Shown here piece after piece: positions 41,872 through 57,636 of a stretch of 64,000 nucleotides of DNA. Every line of letters starts with the position of its first letter. Positions within the stretch are counted from its first letter, which is position 1. Under the pieces are notes generated by a model. The model saw only the letters and a program-made list of their open reading frames with translations. It searched no databases and was not told the origin of the DNA. Source of the DNA: an uncultured delta proteobacterium (GTDB taxonomy: Bacteria > Myxococcota > Myxococcia > SLRQ01); assembly GCA_963727485.1 (NCBI GenBank), contig CAVSGM010000003.1:672001-736000 (forward strand), in the 5' to 3' direction. A program made the position numbers and the translations under genes.

Positions 41872-42321
41872 CTATCGCCTCGGCTGCGGCCGGGCGCCCG
41901 CGCCCTTGCCGAGCTCGGGGACGATGCCGATCTGCTGGGCCATGCTCATCACGTCGTAGAACAGGTGCCCCTCGACGATCTTGCCGCTCTTGTCGAAGCG
42001 GCTGTAGCTGGCGCCGTCGATGGCGAACTTCTTGTTCGACGGCGGGCTGCCCATGAACTCGCCCTTCTGGGTGCCGGTGCAGTGCCAGAGGCCGATGACC
42101 CGCTCGTTCTCCACCACGTAGTCGTTCATCTGGACCTTGAGATCCGGGAAGGCCTTGCGCAGCATCTGGATGCCTTCCTTGAACTGGGCAATGTTGGTCT
42201 TGCCGATCAGCGGATCGTGGCCCACGTACTTCGGGGCGCAGACCTCGTCGATGATGTCGAGGTTGCCCTTCGAGTACCCCTCTTCGGCGAGGCGCCGAAC
42301 GTTCTGCTTCACGTCTGCCAT
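41872..42321 (-). CDS. SnoaL-like ester cyclase
   Basis: AFPDL, GT.KGEFMG.PP..K, GKIVE; AAGGAG RBS. Confidence 0.88.
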   Translation of the reverse strand: MADVKQNVRRLAEEGYSKGNLDIIDEVCAPKYVGHDPLIGKTNIAQFKEGIQMLRKAFPDLKVQMNDYVVENERVIGLWHCTGTQKGEFMGSPPSNKKFAIDGASYSRFDKSGKIVEGHLFYDVMSMAQQIGIVPELGKGAGARPQPRR

Positions 42322-42470
42322 GATGGGCTCCTTCCGCGCAGGCGTGCCCCGCGCACCTTGCAGGTAGGTCCCGGGGCCGGCGGCGGTAGAGCGTCCGGTG
42401 CCCCAGCGTCCGGTGCCCCTGGGCGACGGGCCCGAGGGGCGGGACGCCCGGCGGGCGAGGACCCCGTGCG

Positions 42471-43816
42471 CTATCTGGCCCAGGCCACGGTGACGACCCC
42501 GTAGAACGGGAAGGGCTGGCTGTCGTCGACGCGGATGTTCTGGGCGGTGGGGGTGGCGGTCACCGGGGGGCCGGCCAGGGCGTCGGCGCAGGCGACCTCG
42601 GGATCCTGGGAGAGCTTGTCGGCGTTCTGCTGGCCGACCTGGTCGAGGATGAGCTGCTTCACGTCGAGGTTGGGGTCGCCCACGGCGCCGCCGGCGACCT
42701 GGTCGAGGTAGGTCCAGGGGAGGTCGCAGTGGCGCAAGGTGAGGTCCGCCGGGTGGTAGCCGGCGCCGATGGCGGTGTGCACCCGCACGCACCCGGGGGT
42801 GGCGTCGTCGGGGGTCACGGTGAGGGTGACCCCGCTTCTGGCCACCAGGTCGTAGTGCACCACCAGGTGGCTGCCGCCGGTGCCCGCGGGGGCGCACACG
42901 TCCCAGTCGGTGGGCGAGACCTGCTCGGCGTCGATGAGGCCGAAGGAGCGCAGGCGGGGGGTGACGCCGCTGACCACCCGGATCACCTCGTTCACCAGGT
43001 ACTTGGGGAAGGGCAGGGTGCCCGCGTCGTCGAAGCGCGTGGGGTCGCCGGTGGCGCCCAGCAGGGTGAAGTCGGCGTTGTAGCGCTCGGTGTCGCGGAA
43101 GGGGTTGTAGTAGGCGCGGACGGTGGTCTCGTTCCCGCTGGTCCTTGGCCCAGGCGAGGAAGCTCATGGCGTGGAGCTCGGTGGAGAAGTCGTCGTGGCC
43201 GCAGTCGTCGATGTAGCGGCCCTGCACCAGCGCCCAGTCGCCGAGGTCGGGCAGGTCGAAGCCGGGCTGGAAGCCGGTGGCGTTCTTCTCGGCCATCTGG
43301 GCCCAGGTCTGGCCGGTGTCCGGCGAGGGGTCGGCGGGCAGGTGGGGGATGTAGCCGGAGGCGAGCTCCACGTGCATCATGGTGGTCCCCTGCTCGCCGG
43401 TGTGGGTGCCCAGGTGCTCGGTGTAGGGGCGGTAGACGGAGTCGAGGACGAGGTTCATCGACAGGTCGTTGCCCAGCTCGTGGCTCATGGGCAGGTCCTG
43501 GGGACCGAGGTGGGTGGTCTTCACGGTCCCGGCCACGGCGATCTGCTCGCCGCCGGGGACGATGTCGGCCCACTCCTGCATCACCTTGGCCTGGGTGATG
43601 GAGGTGCTCTGCAGCTCGCGCAGGAAGGTGGCGGTGTCGGAGCCGCAGACGGCCTTGGCGGGTGAGGCCGGTGGGCGCCGGGCCGTTGTGCGCCAGGACC
43701 ACGGCGTTGTCGTGCCAGTGGATGGGGTGGGTGCCGATGGGGGTCGCGCCCCCGGAGGGTCCGCAGGCGGCGAGGGCGGCGGCGGTGGCGAGGACGGGGA
43801 GCAGGTGGGTGCGCAT
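42471..43816 (-). CDS. Hypothetical secreted lipoprotein (frameshifts ~43660 and ~43140)
   Basis: Lipobox LAAC; joined from three ORFs; contains G..I.DCGH....TELH. Confidence 0.55.
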
Positions 43817-44415: not shown

Positions 44416-47004
<2,589 letters not shown>

Positions 47005-47674
47005 GCGCCAGAGGGTAACCATGGGATCGGGGGATCAATGGGGGTGGGGGTGGGTCGGCGGCGCCGAAATCGCACCCCGGCTTGCCCACGCCGAGCAGGA
47101 CGCCGACCAGGCGCGGGCCCCGCCGGGTAGTGCGGGCCTGGCACGTCACCTCAAGCGGCCTTCAGCGAGCGCTGATTAGGCGGGCCGTCGGGGAGGCTCG
47201 TGCCAGCGACGAGCCGGGCCGGCAGGTCCCCGCAGCTCGCCGGCGTTCATCACCTTACGCCGTCCATCTCACACTCCCGACCGACCACAAGTCGCAACGT
47301 GAGCGAACGCGCGAAGGCGATGGCCAGGGCCGCTCCAGGGAGTGGTGGTGGACATCCAGGGCACCGCCCGTTGCGATGAGCAACGCCGCGGGCGAGTGAG
47401 GCCAGGGAGTGCAGCTTCGGCCTTGGTCACCGCCGGAGTTCACGGTGCCGCGCCTACTCGGTCATTCTCCAGACCGGTGCTGCGATCGCACAAATTACTG
47501 AAATTTCGCCACTTTTACTGCCTGCGCCGAGCGATGTCAGGGGCCTGATGTAGATACCTTGGGCCCCCGGAGGATCTCTGGCTGGGGGGCCAAATAGTGG
47601 CCTTGCGGGGACTGAACCCATGGTTACTCTCGCTACCCCCTAGGGACACCCAGAACCGGATCGAGGTGCAAGCT

Positions 47675-48731
47675 ATGGCAGAGCTGCAGAGTGAGTTCAG
47701 ACGATTCCACGAGGAGATTGCCTTCGAGCGGGACAACGAGCAGAAGACGCTCTCGGAGAAACGTGAGCGGATCCTCAAGCAGGCTGCAGCGACGCCATCG
47801 CGCAGTTGCGGAGGGATGGCGCCACCATCCCCAGCTACCGGCACCGCAACCAGGGCAGTTACGCGATGGGAACGGGCGTCAAGCCGCTGGACGGCGACTA
47901 CGACCTCGACGTCGCCATCGTGTTCGACCTCGACACCGAGGACTACCCTGACCCGGTCGTCGTGAAGAGCTGGGTGTTCGATGCCGTCATGAAGCACACC
48001 GAGAACGTGCGGATGCGTGAGCCGTGCGTCACCGTCTTCTACCAGGACAAGGGCGAGTTCGTGTACCACGTCGACCTTGCGATTTACGGCCAGAGGGGCG
48101 AGTCGAAGCCGATTCGGTTGGCCCGCGGTCGGAAGGGCGGTGCCGAGGAGTCCCGGCGCTGGGAGGACTCCGATCCCAAGGCTCTGCTCGAGACCGTCCG
48201 TGACCGGTTCGCGGATGAGGACGGCGCCCAGTTCCGGCGGTGCATCCGCTATCTGAAGCGTTGGAAGGACTTCAAGTTCCCGTCCGACGGGAACGCCGCT
48301 CCCCTCGGCATCGCCCTCACTGCGTGCGGCCTCCACTGTTCCAGCCGGTCAAGACCACCGACCCCGTCTCCATGAAGACGACCTACGACGACCGGCAGGC
48401 GCTGCTCAACCTCGTCCACAGGATTCTGGGGGCCTTCCGGCAGACCATTGACCCGACCACAGGTAACGCGGCTTTTCGGCTGGCCGTCAGCCTCCCGATT
48501 CCCCCGGGGAACGACCTCTTCGAGAAGATGAGCGCAAAGCAGCAGTCGGACTTCCACGGAAAGCTCGAGGCCCTGGCCGAGGCGCTGAGGTCCGCCGGCG
48601 ACGACCCCGACCCGCACTCGGCAGGCAAGACCCTCGAAGCGGTCTTCGGCGATGCCTTCCCCGTGCCCGACGAGGAAGACCAGGCGAAGCGCAGGGGCCC
48701 GGCTATCGTGTCGTCCGGCGATGCCGCCTGA
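47675..48731 (+). CDS. CBASS cGAS/DncV-like nucleotidyltransferase (CD-NTase 1, possibly clade B); frameshifts ~47790 and ~48340
   Basis: NQGSYAMGTGVKPLDGDYDLDVA (GS..DxD), PCVTV.Y, YHVDLAIY, W..SDP, RYLKRWKD, FG..FP; C-terminal tail ending SSGDAA. Confidence 0.9.
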
Positions 48732-50453
48732 CGGGGAAGGCACAGACGGCGACGCGCACCTTCTGGCTGTCGTCCTGGGCCATCAAGCCCTCCGGAACGC
48801 CCACCGAGTCGAACCGGGCAGCGACGGGCCCCGGGGTGGTCCCTCCGGCCGTCGCTTTGCGGTGGACTGCGAGGTCGACAGCGACTCCGGCGTGGCCCGC
48901 CTCCGGATTGTCGTTCGCCAAGCCTTTCCGCCCAGGTTGCCGGACGTGTACTTGGTCAACGCCGGCGACTTCGACTCCCCGGCCCACGTCGAGGCCGACG
49001 GGCGCGTCTGCTACGTGTCCCAGGAGGGCCTTTCGATTGACCTGGATGCCCCGGAGCTCGTGCTGGCGGAGGCTATCCAGATGGCTGTGGACGTAGTCCT
49101 GGCGTCGGTCAGTGGGAGTAGTCGAGCAGACATCATCGAGGAATTGGACGCCTACTCACGGCAGGCCGGCGCGAAGACGGTGCTGATTTCCCTCGTCGAA
49201 CCGACCGCTGAGATGCGGTCGATCGTGTCACTGCACCGGAAAGGCAAGACGGAGCTCGTAGCCGACTCTGAGGAGGCGGCCGTAGCATTCCAGGACGGGC
49301 TCCGCGGTGCCAGTTCTACGAAGGCCCTCTACATTCCCTTGCCCAACGTCAGCGACGCTTGTCTCCTGGATCCTCGCCGGCTGCAGGAGGCCGGAGCGCT
49401 TCGCACTGTCGTAGAGCGGTCGCTCACCCGGCCAGAGAAGAAGCGACTGCGACGTCTTCTCGCGAAGAAGGCCTCCTACAGCACGGTCGTGGTCGCTCCA
49501 GTCGCGCCGAGCGGCGGCCGTGCGCTTATCGCGTTCCGACGAGTGTGCGAGGGCCGGGCACATCCGCTGTCCGATGAGAGGCTTCGAGACCGAATCGAAC
49601 CCGTCGACCTGAGAAGAGCCGATAGGACACATCTGATCACCCGGGGAGGAGCCTCGCTCCGCCTAGCGGGCGCGCGAGTCGCGCTGGTCGGCTGCGGCGC
49701 GGTCGGTGGCCCACTCGCGCTCGCCTTGGCAGCCGTGGGCGTCGGCAAGATTGACCTATTCGACCCTGATCTCCTGTGGCCCGAGAACATCTACCGGCAC
49801 ATTCTTGGGAAGTCCGCTCTGGGCAAGCAGAAGGCCGTAGCACTCGCCCATGACATCGCCGCCAGATACCCTTACCTTGAAGTGCGCGGCTGGCCGAAGT
49901 CGGCGGAAGACGCGGTCTAGAAGGTCTCCTCGACTTCTCGAAGACCGACCTTGTGTTAGTGGCCATCGGCCAGCCAACTGAGAGCCGCTTGTTGCAGCGC
50001 AGGCTGGCGGCCGCGAACGGACCCCGGGCCGTCTTCACCTGGGTCGAAGCACTTGGTATTGGTGGGCACGCCCTCGCGTCGGCGCCCCGTGGGGAGCCCG
50101 GCTGCTACGACTGTCTGTTCTCCAAGAACGGCGCTCCCTACGCGCGCTCCGACTTCGCGGCGGAGGGGCAAGATCTCACAGCGAGGCTCGCCGGTTGTAG
50201 CTCCAGCTTCACACCGTACAGCTACCTGGACGCGCTCCGCACAGCAGAGCTGGCGGCCAGGCTGGCAACGAAAGTGCTTCTCGGCGAAGAGCCCGAAGCA
50301 ACGCTGATCTCCCGGAAAGGCGATGCGGCCAAGTTCATCACCCAGGGCTACAAGACCTCGGAGCGGTTCAACGCGGCAGGCCCGGAAGTCATCGTCAGGG
50401 GTGAGGCGCTCGCCAATACCGACTGCACGACCTGCGGCAGGGCCGCGGCATGA
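48721..50453 (+). CDS. cap2: CBASS Cap2-like E2-E1 (ThiF) fusion; frameshift ~49915
   Basis: E2: FPPRLP..Y..PAHVEADGRVCY; E1: VALVGCGAVGG, DPD.L..ENIYRH, GCYDC, AGC.S.FTPYS, DCTTC. Confidence 0.88.
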
Positions 50454-51019
50454 CGGCCCTCATCTTCCAGTCGCGTGATGGCTTTCGGCTCAAAGTTTCC
50501 GGGCCGGCTGCCGAACGCCTGCGCTCTCACGCCCAGATGCACGGGAAGTCACCCGAATCTGGTGGTGTGCTGATTGGCCGCGAGATTGAGGCCTCAAGGG
50601 GCCTTCGTGGTGGACTCCTTCACATCGCCAATGAGAGGAGACGGGAAGAAGAGATTCTCGTTCTTCCGGAGGGATACCGGACACCAAGCCGCGATTGACA
50701 AGACGTGGCGCGCCTCCCGCGGTCGTCGCGGCTACCTCGGCGAATGGCACACACATCCGGAGGCTACGCCGAGACCCTCGAGATTGACCGCCAGGACTGG
50801 AGACGCCGGCTCACCCTGGACACCGTTGACGCCCGGTTCGTCGTCTTCCTCATCGTCGGCACGGACAGCATTGGCGCTTGGCGAGGCGAGCGTACTTCCG
50901 GAAGGCTGGAGCAACTGGCCCTAGCGCCTGCCGGTAGCGCGGCGACCGATCCGGTTGAACCAGACTCGCTGGTACGCACCCGCCGGAACGAAGACCGAGG
51001 AGGAGCGGACAGTGAGTAG
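50450..51019 (+). CDS. cap3: CBASS Cap3-like JAB/MPN peptidase; frameshifts ~50595 and ~50780
   Basis: ESGGVLIG, YLGEWHTHPE..P.PS..D; ATGA overlap with cap2. Confidence 0.88.
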
Positions 51020-52229
51020 AGCGTCCAAGAAGGGCAGGGCCAATGGAACGTCCCCGGTCAAGAAAGCTCGCGATGTCGGCCTGACCACGAAGCTGACTCT
51101 ATTCGCACGAGCCGCCGGGCGATGTGAGTTCGCGGGGTGCAACCGAAGCCTGGTCGAGCACCCGATCACCGGTCGCCATGGCAACTTCTCTAGGTTGCAC
51201 ATGTCGTCGCATTCCACGAGGCCGGACCACGGGGGCGTAGCTCGACCCGACCGGCGGACATTAACTGCGTGGAGAACCTCATGCTCCTCTGTCCGACGTG
51301 CCACAAGCACGTTGACGACGAACCGGAGACCTTCACCCGAGAGGTGCTGCTCTCGTACAAGTCTGACCACGAGGAGCGGATTCGCCGCCTTACTGCCTTT
51401 GGGCCGGACATGCAGACAACGGTCGTGCAGCTAAGGGCGCAGATTTCAGGCCGGACCGTGGACATCCCCATCACGCATGTCTACGACGCAGTCGCCCCGC
51501 GGTGGCCCACAGACCAACGCGGCTGGGTCATTGACCTGACGGGCATCGGCAGCGTCGAGACCAAGGCCGGCGCCCAGGCTGCTCAAGAGCAGATTGACCG
51601 AGAAGTGCGTCGAATCTACGACGCGGGTATGGACGTGCAAAGGACCCGCCATGTCTCTTTGTTTGCCCTGGCGCCCATTCCGATTCTGGCCTACCTGGGC
51701 GCTCGACCTTAAGCGACAAGGTGGAGACAGACTTCTTCCAGCGCCATCGCGACTCGGGACTCTCTCCCTGGAAGTGGCGCGACCTCGGAGAGTCAGTGCG
51801 CTACTCGGCTAGCTGTCAACGCTCGGGACGAGCCACCGGGAGCGTCGCTCTGGTGCTCTCCTTGAGTGGCACCATTCTGCCCGATCACCTACCGCCGAGC
51901 GTCAGCGGTGACTGCACCCTTTACGAACTCACGCTCGCGAACGCCAAGCCCAACGTAGACTTCCTCCGGCAACGGCGTGACCTCGACGAGTTTCGTACCG
52001 CCTACCGGGGTTTGCTCTCCGAGATTGCGAGGACACATGGCTCGTTGGAGTCGATTGACGTCTTTCCGGCGGTGCCAGCGCCCATTGCCGTGGTCCTCGG
52101 CTTCGACCGGCTGCCGAAAGCGCACCCGAGCCTAGGCTCTTCGACTACGACCGGGGCCGCGGCGGCTTCCATCCGGTGCTTTCCGTTAGCTCACGAGCCA
52201 GGGCTAGACAGGATAGGGGGACAGATTGA
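51012..52229 (+). CDS. HNH endonuclease-SAVED effector (Cap5-like); about 4 frameshifts
   Basis: LFARAAGRCEFAGC, NLMLLCPTCHKHVD (HNH); SAVED motifs VSLFALAPIP..AYLG, FQRHR..W.W, LVLSLSG, VFPAVPAPIAV.LG; GAGGAG RBS before GTG 51012. Confidence 0.85.
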
Positions 52230-53150
52230 GCATCCCAGAGAGCCAACTGGAGACATGGTCACATCTAGGCGCCCGAACGCTCTCGAGCGCCACGGCTCGG
52301 TCCATCGCGAGAGCACTGGAGGCACATGAGTGGCCGGAGGGGTGGTCGACCAGCGTCTACCAGCAGGGCTCCTATCGCAACACCACCAACATCAGGGCGA
52401 ACAGCGACGTTGACCTTGTCATAGAGTTGACGTCCACCTTTCGCGTCGACATGAGTGGGCTTACGCCAGAGGAAGAGGAGCGCCTCGTGCCGCTACTTGC
52501 CAAGCGGCCGAAGGCCGACAAGAAGATGCTTGAGGCGTTTCGTTCGGAGGTAAGGTCGGCCCTGGTGTCCAAGTTCGGATGGTGGAAGGTGGATGGCGGC
52601 CGGAAGGCGCTTCAGGTGAACCGGGACAGGCACGGGAACCGGTTGAAGGCGGACATTCTCCCAGCGCTGCAGCACCGGACGTATGTCGGAGGCTCGGCGC
52701 AGCGCTTCTCCTACGTGCCCGGCGTGGCTTTCTGGCCAGACGACTACTTTGTCGACTGCATTGTGAACTACCCGCGCGTGCACTACTCGAATGGCGTCCG
52801 CAAGAACAGGCGCACGAAGGGCCAGTACAAGAGAACGGTCCGGATCTTCAAGAATGCCAAGGCCAGATACGACCGCGACTCCTGGTGCATGAACCTGAAT
52901 GCTCCCTCTACTTCATCGAGTGCCTTCTCTACCAGGCCCAGACGCACTGTTTGCGCAGCCGCTCGAAACAAGGTTCGTCGATATCTGCGCCTGGCTGGGC
53001 GACCACCTGCGCGAACCGGCAGCGAGCCGCTGGCACTGCCAGAAATGAGATCACGGGTCTGTTCGGCACAGGCTCAGACCAGTGGCGTGTAGCGAAGGCG
53101 CGTAGATTCGTTGATGCGATGACTGAACTCTGGAAGGACTACGCCAGCGC
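52226..53150 (+). CDS. cdnE: Second CD-NTase, CdnE-like (clade E); frameshift ~52905, 3' end unresolved
   Basis: IPESQLETWSHLGA, QGSYRNTTNIRANSDVD, NYP..HY.NG..KN..T...YK.TVRIFKN, AP-SYFIECLLY, LFG...DQW...KARRF; closely matches the CdnE layout as I recall it. Confidence 0.85.
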
Positions 53151-53786
53151 ATCCCTACTCGATTGCGCCGGGTGGCCGCACCAATGCCACTGTCGGTGTC
53201 GTGTTGGTCAGCCTCGGCGCCTCCTACCTCGTGCACATGGCTACCCGGGCACTCGGGGGTCTTCCATGGTGGTCTCGGCGCCATCCGTGTGGGCCTCCAT
53301 CGGCTTCGTCATCGTTCTGGCTGGATCGCTATCTCTGGCGTGTTCGGCTGGTGCGCGGGCTCTTCCAAATCTGCATTCCGGATCTTTCTGGAGACTGGGA
53401 AGGCGAAGTTGAGAGCTCGCACAAGGAGGGATCCGGGCCCGCGGCCGTGACGGCTCGGATTTCCCAGACGTGGCTGCACATCTCGATCGTCCTTGAGACA
53501 GCGACGTCTCGCTCGCAAAGCCTATCCGCCTCCTTCGGGCTGCGTCCTGACATCAAGCTAAAGGTATCAGTTTGCCAACGAGCCGCGCGCTACTGCCGTG
53601 GAGTCAATGCGACCGCACCAGGGAGCGGCCTGTCTCTACTACCGAGACGGAGAACTGGCTGGCGACTACTTCACCAACCAGCACCGAGGCAACTACGGGC
53701 GGTTGACGCTCCGGCGCGTGGAAGCGACGAGTCCCGTGGGGAAGGGTGCGTTCAGAGCCGTGCGCACGGCGCCCCCAGAGGTGTAG
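53141..53786 (+). CDS. cap15: Cap15-like 2TM + beta-barrel membrane effector; about 3 frameshifts, start unresolved
   Basis: HPYSI N-terminus, two hydrophobic helices, D.YLW, PDLSG.WEG...SS, ISQTW..ISI.LET..S.S.S, Y.F.NEP, H.G.A.L, L.GDYFT..RG.YG.L. Confidence 0.82.
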
Positions 53787-53948
53787 TAATCACAGCCGCC
53801 GCTGCGGGCGAAGCTGGCGGCGGCGTACCGTGTGAGAGGCATGGCCCACTTGGCCTTCGCCGAAGGGCGTGGGTCGAAGTGTGGTAGCTTGGACGTTTAT
53901 GTCTAACGTGGGGCCCTAGAGGACCTGTACGTGCAGTCTGAATGAGGG

Positions 53949-54883
53949 ATGGGACAAGACATGCCGACAGCCTTCGACGGCCGGAACCTGCTGCCCGACA
54001 TGCGCCAGAGGAGTTTCCTGGCGGACGCAGACACGATCGATGAGTACTTGGCGGAGAACGGTGTCACCGTTCATGGATCGGGTCAGCCAATCGCCCGATG
54101 GATAGACACGCTCAGGCAGGCCGCAGCGAGTCGGAGTGCCCCGCTACCGCAAGTGAGGGCAACGCCAACAGCGCTCAGGAAGGAGTCGACGGCCCTCGAT
54201 CTGGTAATGGCCACGCGTCTAGCGTGGGCGATTGGTGTACTGCGAGGGGAGCGCAGGCGAGTTGACGTGGCCAAGTCGGTTTTCACAGACGAAATAGCAT
54301 CGCAAGACCTGCCTTTGGACGACACGCGCCGGCCTCTGATGCCAAGGGGCACAGAGACCATCTACCTAGCTGCAAGGATACTCAAGGCGTCACCAAACGG
54401 CACGGTCAGGGTGGGTGGCCGCAAGAGCAAAGGGGTTGATGTGGTCTGGAACGCCTCCGGATGTCCGGAGATCGAGTTCGAGAGGAAGGACCGCGCCTTT
54501 CGTGCGGCGTACGACGGTCGCCCCAGTTCCTTGGCGCGTCACTTCAGGACAGGCATCCTTGAGGCCGCGAAGAAGTTCGAGCCAGGAGAAGCTGCCCGCG
54601 TCGTGGTCATTGGCTGCATGGCCACATGGAAACAGATTCCAGACCTCCGAAACATACTTCTTCAAGAGAGGGCGGCGTTGGCAGGGGAACTCGCCAACTA
54701 CCCAGCCGGGCCGCACGTGGCGATCAGCTACTGTGTAGGCGTGGAGATCACGGGCAGCGCGTCATTCCGCACGACAGCCGGTACCTACTCGAGATGCGGC
54801 CCTTCGGGGAGGTCCGGAGCCGGTTCTTCCGTGTCTGGAAGCTGTCTTTGGGCCGCGCAGTATGTGAAGCGAGTTCGGCATAG
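53949..54883 (+). CDS. Hypothetical protein, possibly PD-(D/E)xK nuclease-like; 3' end uncertain (probable frameshift ~54765)
   Basis: Low-GC ORF in the defence island with E.....A..L / GVDVVW / IEFERK / EAAKKF spacing. Confidence 0.45.
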
Positions 54884-55037
54884 AAGCCGACGAGAAGTGA
54901 CAGCGCAGGTGGCACCACGCGGCCTTCACAGACTGGTCGCTGCGGTTGCGCGACTCGTGTCTGCGTACGCGCCGGATGGGCGGACTGCACCGGGTGAATG
55001 CGTGGCCCGCGTACGACTCCTGGTGCAGAGGATGCTA

Positions 55038-56187
55038 GTGTCCCGTTTGTGTAGTGCTGTTGACGGCCGGGTGCGAGTATGATCTACGATGCCGATGGCA
55101 TCCAAACACCGCATCGAGTTGACTGACAGTGATCGCAGCGAGCTGGAGGGCTGGCTGCGTACAACGACGATCAGCAAGGGCCTCGCGGACCGCGCCCGGA
55201 TGATCCTCTTGGCCGCAGACGGGTTGTCCGTGCGGAAGACTGCGGAGCGGATCGGCGTATCGTCGATGAGCGTCTTCCGGTGGCGGAAGCGCTTTGCCGC
55301 CGAAGGCATCGCGGGCCTGAAGGACCGCCCGCGCTCTGGGCAGCCGCGCAAGATGACACCGGCCAAGGCCAAGGAGATCCTGCGGCTCACCACCGAGCGG
55401 ATCCCCAAGGAGGCGACGCACTGGAGCCTTCGGCTGATGGCCAAGTACGCCGGAGTGACGGTCCACCAGGTCCGGCAGGTGTGGATGGCCGCCGACCTTC
55501 GACCTCACCGCCTCAAGACCTTCAAGATCAGCAAGGACCCCCGCTTCGCCGAGAAGGTCGTGGACGTCGTCGGGCTCTACCTCCACCCGCCGGCCAACGC
55601 CGTGGTGCTCTCGGTGGACGAGAAGACGCAGATCCAGGCCCTCGACCGCACCCAGCCGATGCTCCCGTTGCGGCCGGGCCAGGTGGAGCGGCGGACCCAC
55701 GACTACGAGCGCCACGGGACGGCAAGCCTCTACGCCGCTTTCGACATCGCGTCGGGCAAGGTGCTCGGACGGGTGACTCACCGACATCGGGCCAAGGAGT
55801 TCCTGGCGTTTCTTCGCCAGATTGACAAGGCCGTGCCGGAGTGGCTCGACCTGCATCTCATCCTCGACAACTCGAGCACGCATACCACGCCGGAGGTTGA
55901 GGCGTTCCTCGAGAAGCATCCTCGGTTCGAGCTTCACTTCACGCCCACCAGCGCGTCGTGGCTCAACGCGGTCGAGGGGTGGTTCTCGTTGCTGGAGCGC
56001 CGGTCGGTTCGGCGAAACTCGTTCACGAGTGTGGAGGCACTCCGGCAGGAGCTCCGTCGTTTCATCGCCGCCCACAACGCCGAGTCGGCCAAGCCCTTCA
56101 TCTGGACGAAGTCTGCTGAAGCGATCATCGGATCGGTCAACCGCGCAAAGGCTCGCGCGACGGAACAGAACTAACCAAACGGGACAC
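55038..56187 (+). mobile_element. IS630-family insertion sequence
   Basis: Terminal inverted repeats GTGTCCCGTTTG... (21/24 match), flanked by duplicated TA within CTAG at 55035-38 and 56187-90. Confidence 0.93.
55089..56174 (+). CDS. IS630 transposase (intact)
   Basis: HTH (W..RF..EG..GL.D.PRSG), SVDEK, DYERHGT, ILDN.STH, SWLNAVE.WF, KPF.W. Confidence 0.96.
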   Translation: MPMASKHRIELTDSDRSELEGWLRTTTISKGLADRARMILLAADGLSVRKTAERIGVSSMSVFRWRKRFAAEGIAGLKDRPRSGQPRKMTPAKAKEILRLTTERIPKEATHWSLRLMAKYAGVTVHQVRQVWMAADLRPHRLKTFKISKDPRFAEKVVDVVGLYLHPPANAVVLSVDEKTQIQALDRTQPMLPLRPGQVERRTHDYERHGTASLYAAFDIASGKVLGRVTHRHRAKEFLAFLRQIDKAVPEWLDLHLILDNSSTHTTPEVEAFLEKHPRFELHFTPTSASWLNAVEGWFSLLERRSVRRNSFTSVEALRQELRRFIAAHNAESAKPFIWTKSAEAIIGSVNRAKARATEQN

Positions 56188-56298
56188 TAGTCGCCCGCAA
56201 CAGTCGTGATTGAGCGCCCCGCGGCGGCCAGCCCCGTTGCCTCAAGGTGGCGCCGCCATGGGGCCGGATCTACACGGGTGCTCGCAGGGGGCCACACG

Positions 56299-56457
56299 AT
56301 GAGGCTCTTCGCGATGCCGGCGCTCGGCCTCGCCGCCACCGCGGCCGCCCCGATGCCGTCGCCAACCCATTCCTCGCCCCCGCCCGCCTGGGCGCTGAGC
56401 ATCGAAGCCCAACACCACGCCTGGGTTCGGATCGCCGGAGTCGCCCCCCTGGCGTAG
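56299..56457 (+). pseudogene. Remnant of a secreted-protein gene paralogous to the gene starting at 63910
   Basis: RBS region and first ~14 codons resemble 63895-63950; the rest is short and unrelated. Confidence 0.4.
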
Positions 56458-56467
56458 AGTGCTCCCC

Positions 56468-57636
56468 GTGCTCACGACCCTCGCCATCGCGGGCTACCGC
56501 TCCCTGGTGGACCTCCGGGTCGGCCTCGCGGGGCCTCAACGTGGTCACCGGGCCCAACGGCAGCGGCAAGTCGAACCTCCACCGGGCGCTGCGGCTGCTC
56601 GCCGACACCGCCGAGGGGCGCCTCATCCCCGCCCTGGCGCGCGAGGGCGGGATCCCGTCGGTGGCCTGGGCGGGGCCCCAGGAGGCCACCCGGCGCTTCG
56701 AGACCGGGGAGCTGGCCATCACCGACCACGTCCAGGACGCCCACGCGCCCCTGCGCCTGCGCCTCGGCTTCGCCGACGAGGACCTGGGCTACGCCATCGT
56801 CCTGGGCCGGCCGGTGCCCGTGCCCGATCCCTTTTCGACCAGGACCCGGAGATCAAGCGCGAGGTGATCTTCGCCGGGCCCGCGTGGACCCGCGCCCGCG
56901 CCCTGGTCGACCGCGCCGGCTCCGTGGTTAAGGTGGCCAGGGCCGCAGCTGGAAGGTCATCGCCCAGGACGTGCCGCCGTACCAGGGGCTCTTCGACCTC
57001 GGCGCCGATCCGGCCCTGGCCCCCGAGGTCGTCCGCCTCCGGGAGCGCATCCGCGGCTGGCGCTTCTACGACCACCTGCGCACCGACGACGACGCCCCGG
57101 CCCGGAGCCCCCAGGTGGCCACCCGCACCCCCGTCCTCGCCGCCGACGGCGCCGACCTGGCCTCGGCCCTCCAGACCATCCTCGAGATCGGCGACGGGCA
57201 GGCGCTCGAGGCCGCCATCGCCGACGCCTTCCCCGGGTCGGGCCTGGAGATCGGCAGGCCCGCCGAGGGGCGCCTCGGCGTCGGCCTGCGCCAGGACGGC
57301 CTCCTGCGCACCCTCGACGCCGCCGAGCTCTCCGACGGCACCCTGCGCTACCTGCTCCTGGTCGCGGCGCTGCTCACGCCCCGGCCCCCGCCGCTGATGG
57401 TCCTCAACGAGCCGGAGACCAGCCTCCACCCGGCGCTCCTCCCGGCGCTGGGTCGCCTCCTCGCCGCCGCCGCGACGCAGGGCCAGGTCTGGGTGGTGAC
57501 CCACGCCCAGGCCCTGGCCGCGGCGCTCGCCGGGTCCGAGGGGCACCAGGCCATCGCCCTGGAGAAGCACCAGGGCGCCACGCGCATCGCCGGCCAGGGG
57601 CTCCTCGACAGCCCGAGCTGGCACTGGCCGGAGTAA
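56468..57636 (+). CDS. Predicted ABC/SMC-like ATPase (AAA_21/COG4637-like); frameshifts ~56530, ~56835, ~56945
   Basis: LAI.GYRSL, VTGPNGSGKSN, WRFYDH.RTD, ELSDGTLRY, VLNEPETSLHP, VVTH. Confidence 0.85.

Follow-up and report, generated by a model that had tools for sequence, protein, structure and literature searches.

Several described loci bring together two antiphage signalling systems based on cyclic oligonucleotides (CBASS) or two nucleotide cyclases. In the DdvS island of Myxococcus xanthus, a CBASS of type I occurs together with one of type II, with several promoters (P1–P4), other genes between the systems and a CHAT-SAVED effector (PMC11506125). The DS-2 operon, which consists of a patatin, a CdnE enzyme and a diadenylate cyclase (DAC), also encodes two nucleotide cyclases (PMC13092281). 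Panoptes and Panoptoo, often found near CBASS, combine a Cap15-like effector with an mCpol or minimal DAC synthase and operate by an inverted logic (PMC12657218; 10.64898/2026.08.10.743927). Here we describe a six-gene array in a 64,000-nt window of contig CAVSGM010000003.1 from an uncultured delta proteobacterium (assembly GCA_963727485.1), in which a complete type II CBASS operon (positions 47675–52229) is directly followed by a CdnE-Cap15 pair of type I (52226–53786). We consider it likely that these are two independent modules, probably carried on one transcript, which would combine DNA degradation by an HNH-SAVED effector with membrane disruption by Cap15 via 3'3'-cUMP-AMP (cUA).

The array resembles each of the above systems in part. 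Unlike in the DdvS island, the two modules abut and each has its own effector. DS-2 shares the CdnE subfamily (NF053871) with the second cyclase of the array, but its second enzyme is a DAC, and it has one effector and neither Cap2 nor Cap3; no match to a patatin effector or to the DS-2C diadenylate cyclase was obtained among the 17 open reading frame (ORF) pieces from 47597 to 56171. Neither of the Panoptes/Panoptoo synthases is present. Our literature search found no description of two CD-NTases (cGAS/DncV-like nucleotidyltransferases) in one operon, with the limitation that the main papers on classification, along with the tables in their supplements, lay outside it and may list such loci. 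The six-gene arrangement is real and is an unusual but modest variant of known systems, so far represented by a single instance. Since each half belongs to a system type already known, what the locus by itself contributes is an arrangement and not a mechanism. It offers a ready-made natural experiment on two CD-NTase pathways within a single operon, which may remain orthogonal, be additive or cross-talk, a question posed for co-located systems in PMC11506125.

Gene content and predicted products of the two modules

The PADLOC, Pfam and NCBIfam profiles, applied to 17 frame pieces, agree on the identities and order of the six genes, all on the plus strand: a CD-NTase (cyclase 1), Cap2, Cap3, an HNH-SAVED effector, a CdnE01-like CD-NTase (cyclase 2) and Cap15 (Table 1). 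This bears out an earlier note on this DNA, in which the array had been read as a type II module joined to a type I module.

The first four genes have the usual order and share features of a type II CBASS with Cap5 (PDB 8ysc–8yss, 8ysq; As and Ll Cap5, PMC8568899), namely a cyclase with the GS-DxD-D catalytic motifs, coupled Cap2 and Cap3, a Gly/Ala-ended cyclase tail and an HNH-SAVED effector, which is the sole SAVED match in the genome. The tail of cyclase 1 ends in Ala, and such Gly/Ala tails are the conjugation substrate of Cap2 (10.1101/2022.03.31.486616). P0110, an intact relative that shares 63% identity with cyclase 1, matches the PDB 8ysc series (E 4.7e-85), and an intact relative of the effector (L098) matches 8ysq (E 9.8e-93) and 7rwk (E 2.4e-57). 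Relatives of both proteins thus match one PDB deposition series (8ys), for which no paper was found in our literature search. The array differs from these systems by the second cyclase–effector pair directly 3' of the operon.

In type I-B CBASS (Rm-CdnE, PDB 6e0k; Cl-, Ef- and Lp-CdnE, PMC10442399; Ssc-CdnE03-Cap15, PMC10686824), a CD-NTase of clade E has a 2TM-beta-barrel effector directly behind it. The last two genes of the array have this same composition, including the lid Asn of the cyclase, but the pair does not stand alone, being joined to a type II operon at its 3' end; the Ssc-CBASS, for comparison, is described as flanked by a type I restriction-modification (R-M) system (PMC10686824). 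Cyclase 2 is nearest to Rm-CdnE and belongs with the cUA-making Rm/Ec-CdnE group, not with the groups that make c-di-UMP or 3',2'-cGAMP (cyclic GMP-AMP). Its Asn181 (position counted by hand) aligns with N166 of Rm-CdnE, the uracil-selecting lid residue (PMC10442399), which predicts a uracil in the acceptor position. Its C-terminal pieces contain Cys-Gln and Asp-Gln-Trp, as in the family; these residues appear to correspond to the open donor pocket found in the enzyme that makes cUA. Cyclase 2 is accordingly placed here as a predicted cUA synthase. A relative of the Cap15 (L071) matches the PDB Cap15 7n34, and in a quick tree the Cap15 of the array falls among the partners of CdnE (support 87) and not in the clade formed by three mCpol-adjacent effectors (support 98). 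Cap15 is reported to bind uridine-containing dinucleotides (PMC13712596, PMC10419184).

The modules are probably orthogonal, because 112 of 120 relatives of cyclase 1 end in Gly or Ala compared with only 6 of 109 relatives of cyclase 2, and because the lid Asn181 of the latter aligns with N166. During infection, Cap2 and Cap3 would prime cyclase 1 through its Ala-ended tail, and the cyclic dinucleotide then made by this enzyme, a purine one and probably an isomer of cGAMP, would activate the HNH-SAVED DNase. Cyclase 2, which would not be a Cap2 substrate, is predicted to make cUA, and cUA would oligomerise Cap15 and thereby disrupt the inner membrane. The two different messengers and the two modes of killing envisaged in the earlier note are thus retained as a prediction, and the benefit would be an additive coverage of different phages, with no new signalling logic. 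The CdnE-Cap15 pair is likely a self-contained cassette that became attached behind a complete type II operon. Redundancy against phage sponges and nucleases, which had also been suggested, is plausible in part; the case for it is weaker given that a sponge such as Tad1 binds cGAMP isomers as well as cUA (PMC10680739). For the suggested cross-talk between the cyclases, no positive evidence was found at the locus.

Table 1. Features of the CBASS array and its surroundings (positions in the window)
Feature	Position	Strand	Matches and remarks
clpB-like chaperone gene, 868 aa, intact; left island boundary	44416..47022	-	76% identical match in G128
652-nt leader between divergent clpB and operon; putative shared-promoter site	47023..47674	.	
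CD-NTase 1, type II cyclase; 2 frame breaks	47675..48731	+	PDLC00795 E 1e-70; PF21654
Cap2 (E2-E1 fusion); 1 frame break near 49918	48721..50453	+	PDLC00837; PF14461, PF00899; PDB Cap2 7to3 E 5.9e-7
Cap3 (JAB isopeptidase) with 2 frame breaks; stop taken from the assembly	50450..51019	+	PDLC00896; PF14464; NF050170 below cut-off on fragment; HTH motif
HNH-SAVED effector (Cap5-like DNase) with 3 frame breaks; correct stop either 52229 or 52216	51012..52229	+	PDLC00746; PF18145
CD-NTase 2, Rm/Ec-CdnE (E01-like) subfamily; 3 frame breaks; stop not readable	52226..53142	+	PDLC00788 E 2.8e-64; NF053871; PDB 6e0k E 1.8e-40
Cyclase 2-Cap15 junction, without stop or standard start	53143..53149	+	
Cap15 (2TM + beta-barrel) membrane effector; 3 frame breaks	53150..53786	+	PF18153 E 1.3e-11; PDLC00703/705
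ORF without family assignment, 162 nt 3' of Cap15; 3' end overlaps the insertion sequence	53949..55082	+	
IS630 element, 27-nt terminal inverted repeats, intact transposase	55035..56190	+	

Conservation of the pairing

Gene neighbourhoods were surveyed from both sides of the array. The best 80 of 287 confirmed genome loci were used for the cyclase 2 family. For cyclase 1, 113 loci were used (80 of at least 318 confirmed metagenome loci, 30 phylum regions and 3 viral loci), 75 of which have Cap2 and Cap3, and 46 of these extend at least 1.5 kb downstream. Second cyclases were sought with profiles built from these loci, and very distant cyclases may therefore be missed. Cap15 lies directly behind the cyclase 2 family gene in 64 of the 80 loci. 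A same-strand type II module, in contrast to the array, was found upstream in none of the 61 loci with at least 5 kb upstream, and CdnE-Cap15 lies downstream in none of the 46 cyclase 1 loci. The earlier note had proposed a search for the same six-gene order and named its absence elsewhere as a point against its own reading; within these samples the order occurs nowhere else.

The cyclase 2 family usually stands apart from other CBASS: 76 of its 80 loci have no second CBASS within 10 kb, and the other four have another CD-NTase within this distance, either in tandem (L046), in a divergent type II system (L063), in a type II system 7 kb off (L062) or in a cluster with Panoptes (L079). Three other genomes in a 401-genome phylum sample contain both cyclase families, far apart or on different contigs. 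In a Pseudomonadota sample, Cap15 was detected in 4 of 401 genomes and the E2 domain in 10 of 401, with no same-strand second cyclase and no six-gene order in the type II loci examined. None of the loci on viral contigs (10 and 3) has two cyclases, and no overlap was found between the 60 Cap2 plasmid records listed (of 319) and the 40 CdnE records listed (of 53).

Several points weigh against the independence of the two modules or against an intact operon. The survey samples are small and the profiles home-made, and the products of both cyclases are predicted from motifs. The staphylococcal CdnE03-Cap15 pair uses 3',2'-cGAMP (PMC10686824), and the Cap15 of the array could therefore respond to the product of cyclase 1. 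The density of frame breaks is about ten times that of core genes, an excess without explanation, and the reads cover only 4 of the ∼14 breaks, at a depth of 2–7. Finally, a different second cyclase, with an AGS-C domain, lies directly behind Cap3 in 4 of the 46 cyclase 1 loci, which hints at selection for pairing. These four loci represent two lineages (64 and 62% identity within the pairs). Two of them have the order cyclase-Cap2-Cap3-AGS-C CD-NTase-2TM-SAVED (L153:2117-8086, L154:9797-15724) and two the order CHAT-SAVED-cyclase-Cap2-Cap3-AGS-C CD-NTase (L195:6905-13627, L203:2152-9004), each with two cyclases and one detected effector. The latter two operons resemble a compacted form of the M. 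xanthus two-CBASS island.

The second cyclases behind Cap3 in these four loci are what would be expected if the array were one coupled dual-messenger system, in which the product of one cyclase drives, primes or tunes the effector of the other module. The tight gene spacing, the response of one Cap15 to 3',2'-cGAMP (PMC10686824) and the requirement of DS-2, whose CD-NTase is of the same subfamily as cyclase 2, for both of its cyclases (PMC13092281) point in the same direction. However, each cyclase of the array has its own effector, the six-gene order was found in 0 of 46 and 0 of 61 loci, the cyclase 2 family is without the Cap2 tail, and two Cap5 proteins that have been characterised show ∼10,000-fold selectivity for their ligand (PMC8568899). 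Coupling is therefore unlikely.

It is very unlikely that the pair acts as a Panoptes-like guard, in which constant cUA would keep Cap15 off and phage sponges directed against the type II signal would release it. Such a guard would agree with the use of Cap15-like effectors by Panoptes and Panoptoo, with the frequent location of Panoptes beside CBASS and with the ability of Panoptoo to use a cUA decoy (PMC12657218, 10.64898/2026.08.10.743927). At this locus, however, the synthase is a CD-NTase and no mCpol or DAC gene is present; the mCpol profile matched only L079 and L113. The position of Cap15 outside the clade of mCpol-adjacent effectors in the quick tree and the absence of a second CBASS from 76 of the 80 family loci also argue against it. 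Of the two mCpol loci, L079 (7636-12603) contains a patatin-CdnE pair, Panoptes (mCpol and a Cap15-like gene) and a Cap15-cyclase pair within 5 kb. In L113 (5619-6606), a type II CBASS is immediately followed by mCpol and a Cap15-like gene in head-to-head orientation, their starts overlapping, which may be due to an inversion or an assembly fault.

A broader proposal is that operons with two CD-NTases form a recurrent and hitherto undescribed class: type II cores of this clade would repeatedly have gained another cyclase at the 3' end (CdnE-Cap15 in this array, AGS-C cyclases in two other lineages), the modules would cross-activate or guard each other, and the CdnE-Cap15 cassette would also nest between mod and res as a backup for R-M. 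As a whole this is unlikely. The wider pattern itself may matter more than the single locus: CdnE-Cap15 nests within operons of type III R-M, and there are type II cores in which two cyclases accompany a single detected effector. Other pairings of CdnE-like genes were also encountered: tandem genes with one effector, a patatin (L046:10001-12704); tandem TGT-CdnE-CdnE-Cap15 (L222:3809-7610) and opposed CdnE-Cap15 pairs (L223, L237, L238) on haloarchaeal plasmids; and a 614-aa protein (P0230) with two CdnE-like domains and altered catalytic motifs.

Gene junctions and tight spacing

The earlier note had described an operon with no intergenic space and listed four junctions, three of which stand: ATG 48721 with TGA 48729–31 between CD-NTase 1 and Cap2, ATGA 50450–53 between Cap2 and Cap3, and, as assembled, GTG 51012 with TAG 51017–19 between Cap3 and HNH-SAVED, where the Cap3 stop assumes no further indel. 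The fourth, TTGA 52226–29 between HNH-SAVED and cyclase 2, is present in the assembly but may instead be a 9-nt gap, since the end of one short-read contig (a loose end, depth 4.2) has an extra base at 52205/6 that moves the effector stop to 52214–16. In either form there is no room for an intergenic promoter before the second cyclase gene, as had been stated. A sigma-70 scan returned no sites even upstream of the operon; it is thus uninformative on an internal promoter, which may still exist.

At the fifth junction, the homology to cyclase 2 ends at 53142 and that to Cap15 begins at 53150, with no stop and no ATG, GTG or TTG in 53143–49; in relatives, the gap between the two genes is −1 to 11 nt in 46 of the 52 measured. 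A cyclase 2-Cap15 fusion, for which a single extra base would have to be erroneous, was also considered. No fusion was seen in the 64 loci, in the best 150 representatives or in a (weak) search for longer proteins, and a fusion is improbable.

The earlier note had taken the lack of a gap before the second cyclase gene as an argument against chance adjacency and for one dual system. This argument is not supported. CdnE-Cap15 begins 1–3 nt behind a DNA methylase (PF01555) of type III R-M systems in 6 of the 80 loci (L006, L023, L024, L041, L042, L043), and tight spacing is thus no proof of cooperation; Cap15 follows the cyclase in 64 of the 80 loci, whereas the type II module is upstream in 0 of 61. 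A type III Res gene lies behind Cap15 in all four loci tested by Pfam, and the other two (L024 and L042) look alike but end at contig ends. Five of the six belong to one Cap15 clade in the quick tree and L041 lies apart, suggesting about two events and not six. Further genes tightly spaced on the upstream side, chosen by eye among 52 ORFs there, include a restriction nuclease and an HNH gene. The CdnE-Cap15 cassette hence has a tendency to enter other defence operons with no space between the genes. No description of a CBASS nested in type III R-M was found in the literature outside the main classification papers and their tables, which may list such loci.

Frame breaks and assembly quality

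Read against relatives in three frames, the 6.1 kb of the array contain ∼14 frame changes, and each gene is in 2–4 frame pieces. In tblastn alignments, 8 splits were counted in ∼5.6 kb of the operon whereas the core genes gave 10 in 79 kb, with splits in 8 of the 78 (150 of the 176 queries from the same-family genome G128 were used). Near-identical contigs from three unrelated short-read runs (X1–X3) were available for comparison: six pieces of 151–264 nt, ∼1,250 nt in total. Five gaps in these pieces (47779, 47786, 51191, 53272, 53319) exactly cancel all four of the frame breaks covered, and three pieces over stretches without a predicted break show no gap. The four type II genes have eight breaks, two of which are covered and absent from the short-read contigs. 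Relative to the assembly, the pieces show five indels and five substitutions. As many indels as substitutions is a pattern typical of long-read consensus error. Four contig placements of 18–20 nt were dropped as chance, and the small word share of the three runs came mostly from clpB.

Because the near-identical contigs are in frame at all four covered breaks, the frame breaks are probably assembly errors, in line with the earlier call for polishing of the indels. It is quite unlikely that the operon is truly decayed in this strain and the frameshifts genuine. The tenfold break density, the unreadable fifth junction and a nearby IS630 would suit decay, but the in-frame contigs, the equal numbers of indels and substitutions and the catalytic motifs kept in both cyclases, Cap2, Cap3 and the HNH domain do not. 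That the junction between the two modules is a misassembly is extremely unlikely, even though the assembly is rich in errors and no contig bridges the junction by at least 31 letters on both sides. One contig matches 238 of 238 nt at 52206–52443, and its nine loose letters match the upstream sequence bar one extra base. In addition, X1 and X2 each contain pieces from both modules, which argues against a chimera, and the GC content is alike in the two modules.

The low-depth, near-identical pieces of 46779–54417 come from runs of different studies and habitats, and may reflect a widespread rare strain or cross-contamination. The flanking genes at 41872–43584 and 56247–57636 also look frame-split in the ORF list; clpB and the IS630 transposase are intact.

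Genomic setting

The source genome consists of 5.55 Mb in 14 contigs, with a GC content of 73%. The CBASS region has a lower GC content (62–68%, compared with ∼72%), and the start of the operon forms the left edge of a ∼35-kb variable island. The gene at this boundary, which we take to be clpB from recognition of its sequence, has a neighbour in G128 that maps ∼35 kb away in the source genome, and the island does not lie between the same genes in G128. No target-site or cassette-end repeats were evident around the operon. The region of the clpB start (47011–47028) and the CBASS leader (47614–47631) contain the two arms of an 18-nt inverted repeat (89%); it is one of 78 such pairs found and may be chance or a shared operator. 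The IS630 element has a second copy, 99% identical, on another contig (C2). The ORF that it overlaps had no match in the Pfam, PADLOC or NCBIfam scans; it resembles three Atlas clusters without names (0.94), shares an identical 178 nt with run X3 and is a candidate defence gene of the island.

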